From Caulobacter sp. UNC279MFTsu5.1 (GTDB taxonomy: Bacteria; Bacteroidota; Bacteroidia; Chitinophagales; Chitinophagaceae), in the NCBI GenBank assembly GCA_943369185.1, contig CALRMK020000002.1:501368-565367 (forward strand): DNA of 64,000 nt, read 5' to 3'. Position 1 is the first letter of the stretch, and each line of letters begins with the position of its first letter. A program made the position numbers and the translations under genes. Positions 18,924-64,000 of the stretch are shown in pieces. A model generated the notes under the pieces. It was given only the letters and a program-made list of their open reading frames with translations, was not told the origin of the DNA and ran no database searches.

Positions 18924-20120
18924 CTACGCTTCAAAGTAGGCAAGGCTTCCGCCTACCCATTCCTTGTCTTTGTTATAGCGCACACCGATCATTTTTCCTT
19001 TACTGAGTCTTGCAAGGTTATTGGTAGCTACCGGTCTGACTGCTCCTTCTTTCCAGAAATAAAAGATCCTGATCTCTACTTTGGCAGGGATGTCGGGTGT
19101 AGGTATAACGGCTGCATACTGCACTTTTTTCTGCAGGATCCAGTTTTGCGGGTCGGTAACATTGTCAATATCTTCTTTGGTAACATCAATCACTACACCC
19201 TGTCCGGCAAAAGAGAATAAGGGTTTTAAAACATAGTTCTCCAGATCAGCTGGGATCTCGGTAAGCTGGTTCAGAAACCAGGTTTTAGGAACATAGGGAT
19301 GATCAATAAACGGTAAAGTGTATTTACTGATGCGGTAAAACCAGTTGGGATGCGGTACCCATTCTACCGCCAGATCTGTTAAGAGTAATTTTCCTTTTTC
19401 CTGGATCTCTGCCGATTGTTGCTGCAGATCGTCAAAAATGATCCGGTTATAGATCCTGTGTACAGCGATCTTCTTTCCTTCTTTCAGGTAAAATAAATGC
19501 CGTCCCTCCTGTATCAGCTCTGTTAAACACACAACGGGAATACCTACGTAATCAGTGGTACAATAGAAATCGATCTTTGTTTTCTGCTGGTGTGGCAGGA
19601 TCTCCAGCAGAATCACATTTTCCGGCTGGTGTGTGCCCAGTATCACTTCGCGGAGTAACTGCTGGTAAGTCTCTTTTGTAAATCCACTCAGGTAAGAGTG
19701 ATAATTAGCCGGGATGTCGAAATGTTTGCGTGTTACTTCATCATGCCAGATCTGGTAAGCGAACAGGGTAGGGAAGCCCTGCATTTCGATCAGCTGTGGT
19801 TCCAGTTCACCGCTGGCATTCTCACAGATCCCGAAATCAAATGCAATAAAATGGGTATGCGCATTCTCATTCGGCACTTTTACTTCCGGTGGTATGGCAT
19901 GCGCGCTGATTGAATTGAAATTGAACTGCGTAATCACATCTACAATACTTTCGCAGGCAGACAGGACTTTGTCTGTAAAAACTTTATCAATGAATACCGG
20001 TGTTTCTGCCACCCGGAATTCAATGGCTCCGGGATGTTTACTGTGTAATTCCTTAAGGTAGGCTTCGTATTTCTCCGTAGTAAAATTTTCGTTGAAATGT
20101 TTTCTGACAGATGGTACCAT
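18924..20120 (-). CDS. Circularly permuted ATP-grasp / glutathionylspermidine-synthetase-like amidoligase
   Basis: Motif order FDF...LIEMQGFP, then RISKYTLP, then YVLKPLFSFAGQGV, then WILQKKV. Confidence 0.65.
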   Translation of the reverse strand: MVPSVRKHFNENFTTEKYEAYLKELHSKHPGAIEFRVAETPVFIDKVFTDKVLSACESIVDVITQFNFNSISAHAIPPEVKVPNENAHTHFIAFDFGICENASGELEPQLIEMQGFPTLFAYQIWHDEVTRKHFDIPANYHSYLSGFTKETYQQLLREVILGTHQPENVILLEILPHQQKTKIDFYCTTDYVGIPVVCLTELIQEGRHLFYLKEGKKIAVHRIYNRIIFDDLQQQSAEIQEKGKLLLTDLAVEWVPHPNWFYRISKYTLPFIDHPYVPKTWFLNQLTEIPADLENYVLKPLFSFAGQGVVIDVTKEDIDNVTDPQNWILQKKVQYAAVIPTPDIPAKVEIRIFYFWKEGAVRPVATNNLARLSKGKMIGVRYNKDKEWVGGSLAYFEA

Positions 20121-25711: not shown

Positions 25712-25795
25712 GCCCAGATGGCGAAATTGGTAGACGCACTGTGTTCAGGTCGCAGCGCTCGCAAGGGTGTGCTGGTTCGAATCCAGTTCTGGGCA
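25712..25795 (+). tRNA. tRNA-Leu(CAG)
   Basis: Acceptor GCCCAGA/TCTGGGC, D-loop AATTGGTAGA, anticodon loop TT-CAG-GT, long variable arm, T-loop TTCGAAT; CCA not encoded. Confidence 0.97.
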
Positions 25796-25797
25796 CT

Positions 25798-52108: not shown

Positions 52109-52238
52109 CGCCAATGAGATATTGTAAAATGGCAGGCTGTTTCTATCAGGAATGAGAAGGACAGGTAAGTGATATTCCCGAAAGTCAGAATCTCTAAAAA
52201 AAACGCCGGATTTACCTGCCAACCCTTATTTTTGCGCC

Positions 52239-52333
52239 GGCAGGTCTCACACGACCAGCTCCTGCTGAACTTCCCCAGGGCAGGAATGCAGCAAGGATAA
52301 GCGGTTGTAGCGGTGCGATGTGAGTAGCCTGCC
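52239..52333 (+). ncRNA. ffs: Small bacterial signal recognition particle RNA (4.5S)
   Basis: Helix-8 signature CAGG-GCA-GGAA-TGC-AGCA (E. coli: CAGG-TCC-GGAA-GGA-AGCA); closing stem GGCAGG..CTCAC/GTGAG..CCTGCC; TATTTTTG -7 box just upstream; T-run after. Confidence 0.88.
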
Positions 52334-52360
52334 ACTTTTTTTTCTATTCGCGGGTAGCGA

Positions 52361-54173: not shown

Positions 54174-54210
54174 AATGAGTGAATGAGTGGGTGAGTGAAT
54201 GAGTGAATGA
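54174..54210. repeat. Octamer tandem repeat
   Basis: ATGAGTGA ATGAGTGG GTGAGTGA ATGAGTGA ATGA. Confidence 0.75.
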
Positions 54211-54228
54211 TTTGATTTGTTTAAAATT

Positions 54229-54476: not shown

Positions 54477-54661
54477 ACTGCATAATTACAGTAGCTGGAT
54501 GGGGTTTTCTTATATACCGGTCTTTATAAGTTATATCCTTTACTGACCGAAACCGGATTTGTGTTTAAGTATCGGTGGAAAAATTACATAATTCACTGTA
54601 CAGCAATACTTTCTGACTGTATTTTCCCTGTTTTCTGTGTTTTAATCTTATCTTGTCATCT

Positions 54662-55663
54662 ATGCAGGAGAAAAAAGACTTTGTACATGTTACCGGTTGT
54701 GAGCCACATCGTATCCGAACCAAACTCATTCTCAAAGAAGTGCCGGAAATGCGTAACCTGATCGGTAAGAACCCTTATACTTTTCTGGCTATTGTTGGAC
54801 TGGTGGCTTTCCAATTGGTGGGAAGCTGGCTGGTGGCCGATCAATCCTGGTGGATCGTGGTAGGTGCTGCTTACCTGCTCGGTGCTTTTGCCGATCATGC
54901 TTTATTTGTGATGATCCATGAATGTGCCCACCGACTGATCTTTAAAAACCAGGCAGCCAACCGCCTGGCAGGCATTCTGGCCAATATTCCCCTGATTTTC
55001 CCCAGTTCGGTTTCTTTCGAAACCTATCATATCAAACACCATTCTTTCCAGGGCGTGCATGAACTGGATGGCGACCTGCCCAATTACTGGGAGGCAAGAC
55101 TGATCGATAACTTTTTTATTGGTAAAGTGATCTGGTTACTGTTCTATCCTTTTTTCCAGCTGTTCCGTTTTCCCCGCCTGCGCGAGATTCAGCCATTTAA
55201 CAAATGGGTGGCACTGAACTGGTTGGTACAAATTGTATTCATTAGTCTGATTGGCTGGTTGTTAGGCGCGAAAGCGGTGCTGTTTCTGATCTTTAGTTTT
55301 TTCTTTTCCGTTGGATTACATCCTTTGGGAGCGAGGTGGATACAGGAACATTATCTCACCAAAGGCGAACAGGAAACCTATAGCTATTATGGTGTGTTGA
55401 ATACGGTGGCCTTTAATGTGGGCTATCACAACGAACACCACGATTTCCCCTCCGTTCCCTGGAACCGGTTACCGCAGATCCGGAAGAATGCACCTGCTTT
55501 TTATGATACCTTGAGTTATCATACGTCCTGGACAAAACTTTTTTTCCGGTTCCTGTTCGATAAGGAGATCTCACTCTTCTCACGTATTGTAAGAACCAAC
55601 AGGGGTAAAGTGATGCTGGCCGATGAATCGCGTCCTGATATTGACCTCACAGCGGTTAAATAG
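54662..55663 (+). CDS. Fatty-acid/sphingolipid desaturase, DEGS (delta-4 desaturase/C4-hydroxylase)-like
   Basis: His boxes HECAH, HIKHH, HNEHH; N-terminal DF......PH..R...IL...PE motif; ETYSYYG.LN...[13 protein letters not shown]. Confidence 0.85.
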   Translation: [333 protein letters not shown]

Positions 55664-55867: not shown

Positions 55868-56074
55868 ATGAAGAGTAATGTAATGCCTTCTATTGTCCAG
55901 ATCGAAGCAAATGAATTAAAGCAACTGGTAACAGAAGTAAAAGAAACCGTAGCAACAGGAATTGTACCTGTAACAAGAAAAAAAGCCAACCATACCCGTT
56001 TTGGTATTGTTGATCTCTGGAATATCCGTCGTGGTGTGAGAAGTACACGCGTTTCCACACGTTGGTTTGTGTAA
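55868..56074 (+). CDS. Small hypothetical protein (68 aa)
   Basis: Own promoter, AT-rich translation-initiation region, own terminator. Confidence 0.7.
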   Translation: MKSNVMPSIVQIEANELKQLVTEVKETVATGIVPVTRKKANHTRFGIVDLWNIRRGVRSTRVSTRWFV

Positions 56075-56100: not shown

Positions 56101-56128
56101 AATCCTCCGCTTGTCGGGGGATTTTTTT
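56101..56128 (+). terminator. Intrinsic terminator
   Basis: AATCCTCCG-CTTGT-CGGGGGATT followed by a T run. Confidence 0.8.
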
Positions 56129-57894: not shown

Positions 57895-59337
57895 TTACCA
57901 CAAAGCTTTGCCCTGGTAAAAGTCGAGCACTTTTACGCGTAGCAGGTAATCGTATTTGGCTGCTACAAAATTGGCATTGCTTCTGTCCAGATTGTTTTTG
58001 GCAATCATATATTCTACGGAAGTATTTACCCCATTGGTAAATCTTACTTCTGCTGCTTTAAAAGAAACTGTAAAATCTTCTACCTGTTGTTTCAAGGCCA
58101 GGTAACGTTCAAAAGCGGCATTCATATTCACATAGGCCTGATCCACTGCCTGGCGTAATTGTGTTTTTACCGTTTGTGCTTCAAAGCTGGTTCGTTTTTC
58201 AGCGATTTTTGCCTGGTTCACATTACTGCGGGCACGTAACCCATTCAGGATCGGAATCTGCAGTCCAATACTAAGTGATGAGTTCAGGTTATTGGTCCAT
58301 TGATCGCCATAAGTAATTTTTTGACTCAGATAATTATTTTGCGGTGCAAACACTGGTAGTTTGCTGCCACTGACAGTCACATATTGACTGGTTGCCACAT
58401 CTGCCGTGTTGAGCAGTTCCTGTCGGGTAGCTACACTCGAATAGTTGGTGCCGAAACCGCCATTAAAACTAAGTGTTGGGAGTAATTGGGCTTTTGCAGC
58501 GAGATATCTTTTCTGTGCACTTTGCTTGCGGTACTCGGCAGCTTTGATAAAAGCAAGTTGCTGCTCGGCTGTCTGATAAATATTTTCTGCCGTGCCATCA
58601 TATAATACAGGATTTCCGGAAGCACCAAGGTTCTCGAGCTGCACATTGGCATTGTAGGGTACATTCATTAACTGCGCCAGATTGATTCTGGCAGTCTCCA
58701 GCGTATTTTTTCCATTGATGACGGCTAACTGATCGCCGGAAAGCTGTCCTTTCAGATCATATAACATGGCCGGGGCAATGGCTCCGCTGGCATGTAAGGT
58801 TTCCAGCCGTGCTACCTGGTTTTTGGTTACTTCTACCTGTTTTTGGGCAACTTTCAGTTGCTCCTGTGCACTCAGTACCTGCAGGTAAGCCAGTATTACA
58901 TTGATAGTGATATTGTCTTTTGTCTGCTGCCAGTCCATTTCGCTGGCTTTGGCGGCAAGTTCGTTTTGTTTGATGGCGTTCTGTATAGAAGAACCATTCC
59001 AGATCGTGATACTGGTGTTGATGGAATAGTTGGCGAAATTGATCTGCTGGTTGGCATAGGTATTGGTAAAGGGATCGATACTCCGGCCCTGGTTAATACC
59101 ATGATTTACGTTGCCGGAAATAAACGGTAACTGGCTGCCCTTGGCTTGTTTGTAGGTTACTTTGTCTGATTGTGCCTGGTATTCAGACTGGCGAACAAGC
59201 AGGTTGTTTTCGATGGCTGTTTCCACGCATTGCTGTAAGGTCAGAACTCCGCCGGTAGTACCGGCGTTTTGAGCCTTTACTGTTGTTGTGAGGAGGATGG
59301 CAAAAACTATGATGCCGCTGATATGTTTCTTTTTCAT
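57895..59337 (-). CDS. TolC family outer-membrane efflux protein
   Basis: Signal peptide; LTLQQCVETAIENN, LPTLSF, IPILNG, A..RF..G, AKYDY. Confidence 0.93.
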   Translation of the reverse strand: MKKKHISGIIVFAILLTTTVKAQNAGTTGGVLTLQQCVETAIENNLLVRQSEYQAQSDKVTYKQAKGSQLPFISGNVNHGINQGRSIDPFTNTYANQQINFANYSINTSITIWNGSSIQNAIKQNELAAKASEMDWQQTKDNITINVILAYLQVLSAQEQLKVAQKQVEVTKNQVARLETLHASGAIAPAMLYDLKGQLSGDQLAVINGKNTLETARINLAQLMNVPYNANVQLENLGASGNPVLYDGTAENIYQTAEQQLAFIKAAEYRKQSAQKRYLAAKAQLLPTLSFNGGFGTNYSSVATRQELLNTADVATSQYVTVSGSKLPVFAPQNNYLSQKITYGDQWTNNLNSSLSIGLQIPILNGLRARSNVNQAKIAEKRTSFEAQTVKTQLRQAVDQAYVNMNAAFERYLALKQQVEDFTVSFKAAEVRFTNGVNTSVEYMIAKNNLDRSNANFVAAKYDYLLRVKVLDFYQGKALW

Positions 59338-59355
59338 GTTCTCGGTTCGCTTTAA

Positions 59356-60021
59356 TTATTTTTCGATCCTGCCATCCAGCAGGTTAATGATCTGTTTGCC
59401 GTATGCGGCATTTTTTTCTGAATGGGTTACCTGTATGATGGTGACACCATCTTCTTCATTGATCTTTTTAAACAGTTCCATGATCTCTTCTCCCTGTTTG
59501 GAATTGAGGTTACCGGTGGGTTCATCGGCCAGCAATAATTTCGGTTTGGCAATCAGGGCGCGGGCAATGCCTACCAACTGCTGCTGTCCGCCGGATAACT
59601 GAACCGGGAACAGGTCTTTTTTACCCACGATATTGAAGCGGTCGAGTATATCTGCCACCATGGCCTGCCGCTCGGCTGTTTTGATATTCTGGTACAGTAA
59701 AGGGGTTTCAATATTCTCATAAACGGTTAATTCGTCGATCAGGTGATAGGCCTGGAATACGAATCCGATATTCTGCTTGTACAGTTCCGAGCGCTGTTTC
59801 TCTTTGATGGTGTACACATCCTGTTTCAGAAACCGGTAACTGCCTTCGGAGGGTTCATCCAGCATACCAATGATATTAAGTAGGGTGGAGTTACCGGAAC
59901 CGGATGGTCCCATCACAGAGATAAAAGCACCTTCTTCAATGGTCAGGTTAATATCCTTCAGGATAAATACCCGGTTATTACCGTTGTTATGCCATTTGTA
60001 GATCTTTTCTAACTGGATCAT
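59356..60021 (-). CDS. ABC transporter ATP-binding protein (MacB/LolD-like) with Walker A K->N
   Basis: GPSGSGNST (codon AAC), LSGGQQQ, LLADEPTGNL, VTH. Confidence 0.9.
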   Translation of the reverse strand: MIQLEKIYKWHNNGNNRVFILKDINLTIEEGAFISVMGPSGSGNSTLLNIIGMLDEPSEGSYRFLKQDVYTIKEKQRSELYKQNIGFVFQAYHLIDELTVYENIETPLLYQNIKTAERQAMVADILDRFNIVGKKDLFPVQLSGGQQQLVGIARALIAKPKLLLADEPTGNLNSKQGEEIMELFKKINEEDGVTIIQVTHSEKNAAYGKQIINLLDGRIEK

Positions 60022-60048
60022 ATTGCTGGGTTTACTGTCTGGTCATTC

Positions 60049-60153
60049 TCAAAGCCTGTGCCATCTTTGAAAACCCTTTGCCAGTAAGGGTTTCGCAGGC
60101 TAATAATATTTACAAGTGTACGAAAACGGACAGTTTCTGTCTGTGTGCGTACA
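60049..60153 (-). promoter_or_regulatory. Candidate sigma-54 promoter with tandem enhancer sites
   Basis: Minus-strand TGGCAC-AGGCT-TTGA (60063-60049); TGTACG-N4-CGGACA (60117-32) and TGTCTG-N4-CGTACA (60138-53). Confidence 0.6.
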
Positions 60154-60173
60154 CCCTATTTTCCGGGTTGTTT

Positions 60174-60245
60174 GGGCAATGGTCAACTGTCAATGTGAAT
60201 AGGCAATCCAGTGCGATATTCGCCATTGCCCATTCTCTATTCACC
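60174..60245. repeat. Degenerate heptamer inverted arms
   Basis: GGGCAAT GGTCAAC TGTCAAT GTGAAT AGGCAAT vs TTCGCCA TTGCCCA TTCTCTA TTCACCA. Confidence 0.6.
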
Positions 60246-60249
60246 AAAA

Positions 60250-62685
60250 TTATTCTGTCCGTAAACTTTTTACCGGGTTGGCATTGGCTGCCCGGATGGC
60301 CAGTACACTAACGGTGAGTAAAGCTATTAATGCCGCCACGATACCTGCTGCTGCAAAAATCCACCAGCTGATGGGGATGCGGTAAGCAAAATCGGTTAAC
60401 CACTGGTTCACACCGTACCAGGCAACCGGGAAGGCGATCAGTGCAGCGATCAATACCAGCATCAGAAAATCTTTGGACAGTAATAATACAATACTACCTG
60501 TACCTGCTCCTAATACCTTCCGTACACCAATCTCTTTGATTCTTTGGGTGATGGCGAAGGAGGATAAGCCGAGTAAACCCAGACAGGCAATCAGAATAGC
60601 AATCCCTGCAAACAGGGTGAACAAACTGCTCTGTCTTTGTTCGGACAGGTATAGTTTGTTGTAATTATCATCCAGAAAAGAAAATTCAAATGGGATTCCA
60701 GGTAAATAGGATTTCCATTTTTTTTCAATCTCTGCCAGCGCCTCAGTGGTATTGGAGCCGGCGATTTTGATGGAAAGCGCATTAAAGAATCCGGCTTGTT
60801 CGGGTTTGGGTAAAGACATCACCATGGGTGCGATTTTCTGTTTCAGAGACTCGAAATGAAAATCCTTCACTACCCCTATGACTTTGCCAGACACATTTCC
60901 GTAAGAAAAATTACGGCCCACTGCTTTTTCTGCCGATGGCCAACCCAATGCTTTTACAGTGGCTTCGTTCAGCAGAAAATTAGCGGTATCGGTTGATACG
61001 CCCGTAGAAAAATTTCTGCCGGCAGCCAGACTGATATTGTAAGAGGGGATAAAGTCATGATCGACCGCGAGGTATTTGAGTTCTATGTTTACAGATTGAA
61101 GCGAATCGCCTGATTCGGCTGAAGCGTTCTGCGAATCAAGTAACCTGCCAGTAGGAATCCGCGAAGAGCGGCCCATACTGCGGATATAAGATTTGGTCAT
61201 CAGATCGTTTCTGAATGCTTCAAACTGACTGTTATTGGTAAAATAATAAGGGAATACTGCCACTTGCTCTTTTGAATACCCCAGTTTAGCCTCTTGCATA
61301 AAACGGAGTTGCTGAAAAACGATGGCTGTAGTGATGATCAGTACAATGGAAATACCAAACTGTGTAACCACCAATGCCTTGCGGAATGAAATGGATCTGC
61401 CTCCTACTTTGAACAATCCCTTCAATGTTTTTACGGGCTGAAATGATGACATGAACAGGGCAGGATAGAGGCCTGATACAATACCTACAATAAAGGGAGT
61501 CAACAGGAGAGGCAGGAGAAATTTCCAGTTCAATAACATAGTGGCAGATAATGCAACACCGGCCATTTTATTCAAAGCGGGTAAGATGAGCCAGGCTATC
61601 AGGATGGCGACTGCCATGGCAATCCAGGCGATCAGCACGGATTCACTCAGGAATTGCGCTACCAGTTCACCTTTACCGGCTCCGGATACTTTCCGGATCC
61701 CGATCTCTTTGGCACGTAGCGTGGAACGGGCCGTTGACAGGTTCATATAATTGATGCAGGCAATCAAAAGAATAATCAGTGCGATAATCGAGAACACATA
61801 TACCCGGTTAATATCTCCGTTTTCTTCCGCTTCATAATCTGTGTGAGAGTACAAATGGATATCTGTCAGTTTCTGGATCTCCAGTTTGGTTAGCTTGGAG
61901 AATTGTATGGTGGAAGGAGCACCCGGAAAAAATACATGTTTGTCTATAAATGCAGGTAACTGCGCTTCGATATTCTTAACAGGATAGTTTTCCGGAACCA
62001 AAAAATAGGTAAAAAAGGAATTATTGCCATAGTTGGTCTGTAATTGTCTTTCGCCATATACCGCGGAATCTTTCAGGGTATTGAATGATACCATGATCTC
62101 CGGATGAAAATGCGAGTTGGTTGGAAATGATTTAAAAATACCCGATACTTTCAGGTTGAACTGGTTGTTGAAGCGGATCATTTTGTTCATGGGTTCTTCC
62201 TTGCCAAAATATTTTTCCGCAATTTTTTCTGATAGCATTACGGTAAAGGGATCCGTCAGTGCTTTGGCCGGATTGCCCTTCACAACGTTTACATCAAATA
62301 CATCGAACAGGTTCTCATCAGCAAAAAATAACTGGCTTTCGCTGAATAGTTTGTCTTCGTATTTCACCGGCGTTTTACCATTGGGCAGCAAGCGGGTTAC
62401 TTTCTGGATATCCGGAAAATCATTTTTCAGCAAGGGGCCGAAAGGCGGAGCCACGGTACCCAGTTTCAGCGTTACGGCACCATCCGGATTATTGAAACTG
62501 CGGGTGATCCGGTATATGCGGTTGGCTTTGCTGTGATAAGTGTCGTAACTGGTTTCGTGAATGATATACAGTGTAATGAGCAGGCAACAGGCAAGACCCA
62601 TGGTTAAGCCAAAGAGATTGATGAACGAGATGAATTTGTGTTTCATCAGGTTTCGCCAGGCCATTTTAAAATAATTTTGAATCAT
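60250..62685 (-). CDS. ABC transporter permease (MacB-like, duplicated FtsX domains)
   Basis: MIQNYFKMAWRNL, ACINYMNLSTA, KEIGIRKV, R.KEIGVRKVLGA, NPVKSLRTE. Confidence 0.95.
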   Translation of the reverse strand: MIQNYFKMAWRNLMKHKFISFINLFGLTMGLACCLLITLYIIHETSYDTYHSKANRIYRITRSFNNPDGAVTLKLGTVAPPFGPLLKNDFPDIQKVTRLLPNGKTPVKYEDKLFSESQLFFADENLFDVFDVNVVKGNPAKALTDPFTVMLSEKIAEKYFGKEEPMNKMIRFNNQFNLKVSGIFKSFPTNSHFHPEIMVSFNTLKDSAVYGERQLQTNYGNNSFFTYFLVPENYPVKNIEAQLPAFIDKHVFFPGAPSTIQFSKLTKLEIQKLTDIHLYSHTDYEAEENGDINRVYVFSIIALIILLIACINYMNLSTARSTLRAKEIGIRKVSGAGKGELVAQFLSESVLIAWIAMAVAILIAWLILPALNKMAGVALSATMLLNWKFLLPLLLTPFIVGIVSGLYPALFMSSFQPVKTLKGLFKVGGRSISFRKALVVTQFGISIVLIITTAIVFQQLRFMQEAKLGYSKEQVAVFPYYFTNNSQFEAFRNDLMTKSYIRSMGRSSRIPTGRLLDSQNASAESGDSLQSVNIELKYLAVDHDFIPSYNISLAAGRNFSTGVSTDTANFLLNEATVKALGWPSAEKAVGRNFSYGNVSGKVIGVVKDFHFESLKQKIAPMVMSLPKPEQAGFFNALSIKIAGSNTTEALAEIEKKWKSYLPGIPFEFSFLDDNYNKLYLSEQRQSSLFTLFAGIAILIACLGLLGLSSFAITQRIKEIGVRKVLGAGTGSIVLLLSKDFLMLVLIAALIAFPVAWYGVNQWLTDFAYRIPISWWIFAAAGIVAALIALLTVSVLAIRAANANPVKSLRTE

Positions 62686-62716
62686 ATAGATACTTTAGTT
62701 TGTTAGCTAGCAATAT

Positions 62717-64000
62717 TTATTCTGTTCGTAAACTATCAGCAGGATTGGCAGATGCTGCTTTGAAAGTTTGTAAACTAATCGTGAGTAAAGCTGCGAGAAA
62801 CATGGCCACTCCCGCCAGCAGAAATAACCAGAGATTGATGGGAGTGCGGTACGCAAAATTCTGCAACCATTGATTCAACGCATACCAGGCAACCGGAGTG
62901 GCTATCACAAAAGCTACCAATACCAGCCATAAAAAATCTTTGCTGAGGATGGTAACGATCTGGGTAACAGAAGCTCCTAATACTTTTCGTACACCGATCT
63001 CTTTGGTGCGCTGATGGGTGGTGAAGATCACCAATCCCAGTAAACCCAGACAACTGATGAGTACTGCAAGGCCGGTTGCCCATTTCAGCAAACTGGCAAT
63101 ATGTTGCTCTGCACGGTAGCTCTGTGCAATCGATTCATCGAGAAAATGATAGTCGAAATCTTCTTCCGGATAGATCTGTTTCCAGTTTTTTTCTATTTTG
63201 GCAATCGCTGTTTTCCAGTTACTGCCATCTGCATTTTTAGGCGGCAGGGTAACGGTAAACACACTGTTAATGAGATCCCAGCTTCCCAATGCCAACGGTT
63301 TGATTTTCTGGTGAAGCGATTTCTGGTGAAAATCTGCCAGCACACCGGTAACCAGCATTTTTTTATTATCCCAATTGAGGTATCTACCCACTGCATCTGC
63401 AGGTTGGTTGAACCCGAGGGCTTTTGCATAGGTATCGTTGATGAGGAATTCGCGGGCCGTATCAGAAGCCGAATAGTTTTTTCCGGCCAATAGTTTCATT
63501 CCGAACTGGCGCAGGTATCCGGTATCTCCGAATTTCATTTCCACATCAGAAGTGATTTCTTTTTTGCCGTTGTGGTAAGAGATGGTACTGCTCCAGGCAT
63601 CGGGTGAAGCAGGAGTTCCGGTAGACAAACCAACGGCTGCTACTTCCGGGATCGCTCTTAATTCTTTAGCGAGGATCAGTTTTTTGGCACGTGAAGTATC
63701 GCGGTAGTTGGTACGGAAGAAGATGAGTGCCTCTTTGGAAAAACCCAGATCCTTATTCAATGTAAAATGAATCTGACTGCTTACCACCAGTGTGGCCAGA
63801 ATAAAGAACTGGGCAATGGTGAACTGTGATACCGTAAGGCTTTTTCTGATCCAGTTTTTGCGGCTTTTGCCGCCGTTAAATAGGTTTTGGTTCTTTAATA
63901 CATTCACGGGTTTGAAAGAAGAAAGTACCATGGCTGGGTAGAAACCGGATAAAAAAGTAACTGCGATGATCAGCGCAACCAGGAAACCTATCATCAATGG
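62717..64000 (-). CDS. ABC transporter permease (MacB-like), 5' part outside the window
   Basis: LSGFYPA, QFTIA, RTKEIGVRKVLGAS, NPADSLRTE. Confidence 0.93.
   Translation of the reverse strand, partial: PLMIGFLVALIIAVTFLSGFYPAMVLSSFKPVNVLKNQNLFNGGKSRKNWIRKSLTVSQFTIAQFFILATLVVSSQIHFTLNKDLGFSKEALIFFRTNYRDTSRAKKLILAKELRAIPEVAAVGLSTGTPASPDAWSSTISYHNGKKEITSDVEMKFGDTGYLRQFGMKLLAGKNYSASDTAREFLINDTYAKALGFNQPADAVGRYLNWDNKKMLVTGVLADFHQKSLHQKIKPLALGSWDLINSVFTVTLPPKNADGSNWKTAIAKIEKNWKQIYPEEDFDYHFLDESIAQSYRAEQHIASLLKWATGLAVLISCLGLLGLVIFTTHQRTKEIGVRKVLGASVTQIVTILSKDFLWLVLVAFVIATPVAWYALNQWLQNFAYRTPINLWLFLLAGVAMFLAALLTISLQTFKAASANPADSLRTE

Follow-up and report, generated by a model that had tools for sequence, protein, structure and literature searches.

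A gene in the 64-kb stretch of DNA that was analysed (the window) encodes a bacterial protein whose sequence marks it as a genuine, full-length member of the DEGS/DES family, and the wider DEGS-like family to which it belongs appears from sequence comparisons to be a deep prokaryotic radiation. In the explanation that is proposed, the protein would be an oxygen-dependent, membrane-bound di-iron enzyme that, in freshwater Sediminibacterium, would desaturate, between C4 and C5, the long-chain base of an N-acylated 2-amino-3-hydroxy lipid. The substrate would be either dihydroceramide or its sulfonate analogue N-acyl-capnine (a sulfonolipid), and the product a sphingosine-type backbone. By analogy with the characterised enzymes, this activity is on balance probable. 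The window gene is an ordinary representative of a large, database-annotated family, and its value lies in the family and not in the locus. A literature search found no study of a bacterial DEGS homologue.

The gene, the parts of its product and the adjoining features are listed in Table 1. A TTG codon at 54653 provides an alternative in-frame start, but is less likely to be used than the ATG at 54662 because the start, the length and the N-terminus (MQEKK...) given by the latter agree with those of most orthologues. Both Pfam domains of the protein exceed their gathering cut-offs in profile searches; the Lipid_DES domain is the signature of sphingolipid delta-4 desaturases. The histidine boxes are spaced as HX3H, HX2HH and HX2HH. 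In an alignment of 28 sequences that ranged from Bacteroidota to vertebrates, residues H86, H90, H123, H126, H127, H230, H256 and H259 were invariant and H220 and H260 were at least 90% conserved, H220 and H230 being the two conserved histidines that lie outside the boxes. The GC content of the gene is similar to that of the surrounding window. Pfam searches did not find the FA_hydroxylase domain (PF04116) of SUR2-type C4-hydroxylases in the protein, nor was any FA_hydroxylase ORF found within the 64 kb. Neither a cytochrome b5 fusion nor an adjoining redox partner gene was found for the desaturase.

Table 1. Positions of the desaturase gene, its conserved parts and the flanking features in the window.
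Feature	Position	Strand	Basis or remark
Divergent intergenic region, 185 bp, upstream of the desaturase	54477..54661	.	Promoter presumed
DEGS-like desaturase CDS	54662..55663	+	333 aa plus stop; ORF, Pfam, orthologue start, BLASTP, dN/dS 0.02
N-terminal Lipid_DES domain (residues 4-39)	54671..54778	+	PF08557, 33.2 bits against a cut-off of 23
FA_desaturase domain (residues 62-286), membrane di-iron core	54845..55519	+	PF00487, 102.5 bits against a cut-off of 29.7
His box 1, HECAH (H86-H90); E87 is the DES1 state	54917..54931	+	Alignment
His box 2, HIKHH (H123-H127)	55028..55042	+	Alignment
His box 3, HNEHH (H256-H260)	55427..55441	+	Alignment
Downstream 68-aa ORF, conserved	55868..56074	+	Found in 13 related loci
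Terminator-like hairpin and T-run after the 68-aa ORF	56103..56128	+	Sequence

The relationship with the eukaryotic enzymes was assessed by BLASTP. The protein matched primate DES1 (P0121) with 38% identity over 319 residues and four gap positions (E 3e-75, 222 bits), and matched DES2 (P0219) along its full length with 37% identity (E 9e-65, 195 bits). A human DEGS1 query sequence retrieved primate DES1 entries with 97-100% identity, and the database protein was used for the comparison. The same query also brought up named DES1 and DES2 proteins from the full range of vertebrates, DES2 appearing among vertebrate matches only in this search; DES2 is taken to be a vertebrate paralogue. Judged by these alignments, the likeness of the window protein to DES1 is far beyond chance. 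The first-pass annotation had described a bacterial full-length DEGS homologue from motifs compared with DEGS1, and this description is upheld: the two-domain architecture is collinear with both DES1 and DES2, all four of the quoted motif pairs are present in the alignment with primate DES1, and the Lipid_DES match and the BLASTP comparisons with DEGS1 and DEGS2 that it had suggested as checks gave the results described above and in Table 1.

The window protein and DEGS1/DES1 (KEGG K04712) have in common the Lipid_DES and FA_desaturase domains, the three histidine boxes, the two further histidines and a comparable length (333 versus 323 amino acids). The bacterial protein differs from DES1 in that its host lacks an endoplasmic reticulum, its N-terminus has no counterpart of the N-terminal glycine on which mammalian DES1 is myristoylated, bacteria are without an obvious cytochrome b5/b5-reductase system, and its candidate substrate may be a sulfonolipid. 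The vertebrate bifunctional delta-4 desaturase/C4-hydroxylase DEGS2/DES2 is likewise similar throughout its length, but its first histidine box reads HD..H, whereas the bacterial proteins have HE..H as in DES1. Elsewhere in the ceramide pathway, the bacterial enzymes (bCerS, CerR) are not homologues of the eukaryotic ones (PMC11087976).

Bacterial acyl-lipid desaturases such as the Bacillus delta-5 enzyme (Des/DesA), and the carotenoid enzymes CrtW and CrtR, belong to the same His-box di-iron superfamily (PF00487) but, unlike the window protein, lack the Lipid_DES domain. When scored with curated NCBIfam models, the desaturase reached 30.7 bits for DesA (delta-5 acyl-lipid desaturase, NF052548; cut-off 500), 28.3 bits for the carotenoid ketolase CrtW (cut-off 350), 20.3 bits for the carotenoid hydroxylase CrtR (cut-off 475) and 32.1 bits for GntB (cut-off 380). 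The protein is nearer to DES1 and DES2, with 222 and 195 bits, than to any of these four families, with at most 32 bits. An identity as an acyl-lipid or carotenoid desaturase was rejected on these values (20-32 bits against cut-offs of 350-500), and the clustering with such enzymes that the first-pass annotation had named as grounds for abandoning its proposal was not observed. An AF2 model of the protein (pLDDT 77.6, pTM 0.79) has helices at residues 39-58, 63-89, 152-172 and 181-219. Its significant fold matches in the PDB were only AlkB and the desaturase-like subunit of chloroplast Ycf2-FtsHi, with TM scores of 0.5-0.63. The predicted fold is consistent with the membrane His-box superfamily, but points no further than that superfamily, since the PDB holds no DEGS structure; a sequence search of the PDB likewise returned no solved structure related to the window protein.

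The desaturase gene is a stand-alone cistron and is not part of an operon. Its neighbours encode a T9SS plug protein, a transaldolase-family enzyme, a GFO/IDH/MocA oxidoreductase, a GNAT protein, a 4HBT thioesterase, a DinB protein and a TolC/MacB-type efflux set, all of them with housekeeping or unrelated roles. Chitinophaga defluvii and Ferruginibacter albus have other genes around the desaturase, and when all ORFs of at least 80 amino acids from 84 loci were clustered no neighbour family recurred in more than ten loci, from which the gene is judged to be free-standing. As the neighbourhood is not conserved, the operon logic that might have pointed to a substrate is missing. A sigma-70 scan of the upstream region gave sites that were no more than expected by chance, the model being one that does not cover Bacteroidota promoters.

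The 68-aa ORF lies on the same strand 199-332 nt (677 nt once) downstream of the desaturase in the window and in the 13 related loci. Its product is cysteine-free with a basic C-terminus, matches no Pfam family, and falls to about 35-42% identity in the most distant of the 13 loci. The ORF is limited to a Sediminibacterium-related sub-clade in which most of the local synteny is also kept, and its association with the desaturase is uncertain. At one locus (L042), only the 68-aa ORF is retained.

Several other features of the window were recorded. The efflux cluster (57895-63997, minus strand) comprises a TolC-like outer-membrane protein, an ABC ATPase and two or three MacB/FtsX-type permeases, and is without an evident link to the desaturase. 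A tandem repeat of the TGAGTGAA type, ~40 nt in length, occupies positions 54174-54213, within the leader of the divergently oriented gene for the GFO/IDH/MocA oxidoreductase. Many unrelated contigs from metatranscriptomes match this repeat, and at high depth, which is the behaviour expected of a low-complexity stretch. A small SRP RNA of the Bacteroidales type (93.8 bits) is located at 52231-52338 and a tRNA-Leu(CAG) at 25712-25796, both on the plus strand. A 398-aa ORF at 18924-20120 on the minus strand matched no Pfam family at E ≤0.001.

Genes for sphingoid-base synthesis were sought with an Spt/AONS probe, an approximate SPT sequence of S. paucimobilis. With this approximate probe no ORF of the alpha-oxoamine-synthase family (Spt, SulA, BioF, Kbl) was found among all ORFs of the 64-kb window, in agreement with the first-pass statement that the window holds no spt gene, and no Spt/AONS-like gene was found within 8 kb of the desaturase in 93 related loci. 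Contig contexts also revealed no Spt neighbour beside nine other prokaryotic members of the family.

Some of these other members carry additional domains or lie close to genes for lipid-modifying proteins. A 737-aa fusion (P0331; L084:1945-4158) joins a GT21 domain to Lipid_DES and FA_desaturase, GT21 being the ceramide glucosyltransferase family; a cytochrome P450 gene lies on either side of it, the start and stop codons overlapping, and the three-gene set looks like a prokaryotic lipid-tailoring operon. In a lineage close to the Bacteroidota clade, a 515-aa fusion (P0247; L085:1303-2850 and L086:1266-2813) combines an FA_hydroxylase domain of the SUR2/FA2H superfamily with Lipid_DES and FA_desaturase, and the gene upstream, of about 420 amino acids, has no Pfam family. 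A gene for a DgkA-type lipid kinase, a family that phosphorylates ceramide as well as diacylglycerol, overlaps a DEGS-like gene on another contig (L090:10014-10373). Elsewhere a DEGS-like gene is followed by a pair of Fer4 and CCG Fe-S proteins with an FA_hydroxylase gene 2.4 kb upstream (L087:10067-12156), and an FAD_binding_4 oxidoreductase gene comes directly after or overlaps a DEGS-like gene (L093:2139-3539). The Fe-S pair, the kinase and the FAD_binding_4 oxidoreductase could be redox or head-group partners, though the hints that these neighbours and the FA_hydroxylase gene give are weak. The GT21 fusion, the FA_hydroxylase fusion and the DgkA overlap are indirect hints that tie the prokaryotic members to ceramide-type lipids.

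All DEGS proteins that to our knowledge have been characterised desaturate (DES2 also hydroxylates) C4 of the dihydroceramide long-chain base. We infer the regiochemistry of the window enzyme by analogy with these proteins, together with the substrate class and desaturation rather than hydroxylation. Membrane desaturases that are 38% identical can differ in their substrates and in regiospecificity. A survey of membrane desaturases lists no other known substrates for the delta-4 sphingolipid desaturases (PMC5037126). Synthesis of ceramide or phytoceramide by the host organism, as the first-pass annotation envisaged, is plausible; the curated lists of sphingolipid producers that were consulted do not name the Chitinophagaceae.

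That earlier interpretation considered ceramide and phytoceramide and did not include N-acyl-capnine as a substrate. The N-acyl-capnines of Bacteroidota are sulfonate analogues of dihydroceramide; an Spt-like enzyme builds them, and Lys281 is specific to SulA (PMC9304779). Sulfobacin F, lighter than sulfobacin D by two hydrogens, is a product of Algoriphagus, Cyclobacterium and Echinicola. RIF-2 comes from the same genera; it is described as arising from sulfobacin F through allylic oxidation at C-6, and its chemical synthesis followed routes used for 6-hydroxy-sphingosine (PMC9305409). The allylic C-6 oxidation and the use of the 6-hydroxy-sphingosine routes place the double bond of sulfobacin F at C4=C5 (PMC9305409). 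Zobellia produces flavocristamide A and congeners with a capnoid-base fragment at m/z 348.2214 which corresponds to capnine minus two hydrogens (PMC10501047). C4-unsaturated capnoid bases are thus documented in both Cytophagales and Flavobacteriia; the desaturation step has no assigned enzyme, and neither report mentions a desaturase (PMC9305409, PMC10501047). Algoriphagus machipongonensis PR1, Cyclobacterium marinum LMG 13164, Echinicola pacifica KMM 6172 and Zobellia uliginosa are among the producers of such bases, whereas saturated sulfobacin A dominates in four other strains (PMC10501047).

The sulfonolipid pathway (cysteate synthase, SulA/CapB, 3-ketocapnine reductase and N-acylation) agrees with a role for the DEGS-like enzyme in that N-acyl-capnine is isosteric with dihydroceramide and C4-unsaturated products are known; it differs in that the AONS probe found no SulA-type gene in the 64-kb window or within 8 kb of the desaturase in the 93 loci. 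The DEGS-like gene is present in metagenome-assembled genomes (MAGs) of Cyclobacteriaceae/Cytophagales among the best 80 of at least 565 species genomes. The best 120 homologues of a Cyclobacteriaceae query all derive from uncultured Cyclobacteriaceae/Cytophagales, and the named genera Algoriphagus, Cyclobacterium and Echinicola are absent from this set. As the named producers are not among these homologues, the link between the DEGS-like gene and the C4-unsaturated sulfonolipids is put forward as a hypothesis.

The lack of a sphingoid-base synthesis gene in the window, and within 8 kb of the gene in the 93 loci, also would fit a DEGS scaffold that acts on a different membrane lipid of Bacteroidota: a phospholipid acyl chain, branched monoenoic fatty acids, or an N-acyl amino-acid lipid, candidates for the last being a glycine/serine or ornithine lipid with an amide-linked 3-hydroxy fatty acid. 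Other prokaryotic lineages place the gene near a second FA_desaturase, ACPS, a thioester reductase and an esterase, and the omission of Chitinophagaceae from the producer lists points in the same direction. However, the conserved Lipid_DES domain is specific to the sphingolipid delta-4 family, the scores are far below the cut-offs for bacterial acyl-lipid desaturases, and the GT21 fusion points to ceramide-type lipids. The survey of membrane desaturases bears on both sides: head-group specificity often varies among enzymes with identities of this order, but the delta-4 sphingolipid enzymes are the group for which it records no alternative substrates (PMC5037126). Overall, action on one of these other lipids is rather doubtful, and desaturation of dihydroceramide or N-acyl-capnine is retained as the preferred reading.

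The reaction, in addition to the substrate, might be different. The DEGS family switches between desaturation and hydroxylation, and an enzyme that acts mainly as a DES2-like C4-hydroxylase would make phyto-type (trihydroxy) ceramides or hydroxylated capnoid bases. The 37% identity with DES2 and the label '4-desaturase/C4-monooxygenase' that JGI attaches to some orthologues are in keeping with such an activity, as is the occurrence in Cytophagales of capnoid bases with extra hydroxylation, RIF-1 and RIF-2. However, residue 87 in the first histidine box, the one alignment column that is fixed differently in vertebrate DES1 (Glu) and DES2 (Asp), has the DES1 state in all 20 Bacteroidota sequences; because this is a single discriminating column, it favours desaturation weakly. 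The main reason for preferring desaturation is that DEGS orthologues outside the vertebrates are desaturases; those of fungi and plants desaturate, and hydroxylation there falls to the SUR2 family, which is unrelated. In RIF-1 the additional hydroxyl is at C5, not C4. In RIF-2 the hydroxyl sits at C6 instead of C4 (PMC9305409). A predominant C4-hydroxylase activity is therefore considered unlikely, and the C4=C5 desaturase reading is carried forward.

The gene has numerous relatives. A word-indexed search returned 5960 proteins at E ≤1e-5, with top matches from Sediminibacterium, Chitinophaga and Ferruginibacter, and an exhaustive search of representatives at 50% identity returned 432 clusters at E ≤1e-30. 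A scan of one genome per species found relatives in at least 565 species genomes. The best 80 of these belong to the orders Chitinophagales, Sphingobacteriales and Cytophagales and include, among Chitinophagaceae, Sediminibacterium, Chitinophaga, Ferruginibacter, Puia, Flavisolibacter, Filimonas and Dinghuibacter, as well as Mucilaginibacter and the Cyclobacteriaceae/Cytophagales. Culturable carriers include Chitinophaga rupis DSM 21039, Sediminibacterium soli WSJ-3, Puia dinghuensis, Mucilaginibacter antarcticus and Flavisolibacter nicotianae, and Puia sp. P3 is a further carrier. The nearest genomic match among those listed is a Sediminibacterium MAG with 97% amino-acid identity, and the locus was found in metagenomes from lakes, groundwater and drinking water. 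Orthologues are annotated by NCBI as "fatty acid desaturase" and by JGI as "sphingolipid delta-4 desaturase". The first-pass annotation had presented the gene as unusual; this impression did not hold, as the family is very common in aerobic Bacteroidota, occurs in many other prokaryotes and already bears JGI labels. Certain MAGs (L005, L030 and L077) have copies at odds with their names: those labelled 'Chitinophaga pinensis' hold a Sediminibacterium-type copy that is 97% identical, and one labelled 'Bosea thiooxidans', an alphaproteobacterium, holds a Chitinophagaceae-like copy. Mislabelling or mis-binning is likely in these cases.

Comparison with orthologues of 90-91% nucleotide identity gave a dN/dS of about 0.02, a value that indicates strong purifying selection on the desaturase gene. 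Plankton metatranscriptome contigs with ~90% identity extend over the entire gene, and their assembler depth is about 11-13. These contigs suggest that the orthologue of a close relative is transcribed in situ, DNA carry-over in the contigs being possible.

A neighbour-joining tree built from 134 sequences recovered the Bacteroidota as monophyletic in all 200 bootstraps and always separate from the clade that contains vertebrate DES1 and DES2, nematode and choanoflagellate sequences; the representatives in this tree are mostly metagenomic with few taxon labels, nematode and choanoflagellate being the only ones placed, and the boundary that it draws between eukaryotes and prokaryotes is coarse. 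Recent capture from a eukaryotic host is rejected because the Bacteroidota clade is monophyletic and apart from the holozoan clade. The nearest neighbours of the Bacteroidota clade are metagenomic clusters, of which one (P0241, via its member P0394) sits on a contig that is plainly prokaryotic. The nine other members of the family that were inspected are all on prokaryotic contigs as well, with SecA, toxin-antitoxin pairs, an integrase, T6SS, RND or overlapping operon genes. In the same crude tree a sequence from Mucilaginibacter (Sphingobacteriaceae, L048) nests inside the Chitinophagaceae group, a placement that hints at transfer within the phylum. The idea that the gene is a decaying or non-functional relic of transfer from a eukaryote, which might be supposed from the long-held view of the family as eukaryotic (PMC12993136, PMC11087976), is effectively refuted by the selection on the gene, its intact catalytic histidines, its breadth of distribution, the tree and the prokaryotic contig beside the clade, and a GC content like that of the window.

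Apart from Spt, bacteria are said to encode no homologues of the eukaryotic enzymes of sphingolipid synthesis (PMC11087976), and a recent review of its evolution places the origin of DEGS1 in early eukaryotes (PMC12993136). Thousands of intact bacterial DEGS homologues under selection contradict both statements. It is possible, and is offered tentatively, that the family represents the missing delta-4 desaturase of aerobic Bacteroidota, acting on saturated N-acyl-capnines and/or dihydroceramides, and that eukaryotic DEGS descends from a bacterial enzyme. The products would be sphingosine-type lipids, for example sulfobacin F, the base of flavocristamide A and the precursor of the choanoflagellate morphogen RIF-2. 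If this is true, the bacterial descent of eukaryotic DEGS would follow from the deep and diverse prokaryotic radiation, and DEGS would be a second sphingolipid enzyme besides Spt that is common to both domains, contrary to the textbook statement.

The consequences depend on the substrate. If another lipid is used, Lipid_DES would be an unreliable marker of sphingolipids and automated "sphingolipid delta-4 desaturase" labels in metagenomes would mislead. If the enzymes are active on ceramide or sulfonolipids, many environmental Bacteroidota would make true sphingosine-type lipids and not only the dihydro forms, and there would be a candidate gene, which can be knocked out in culturable strains, for the desaturation behind signalling lipids of the sulfobacin F and RIF-2 type. 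The origin of DEGS would then also gain a proper prokaryotic outgroup.
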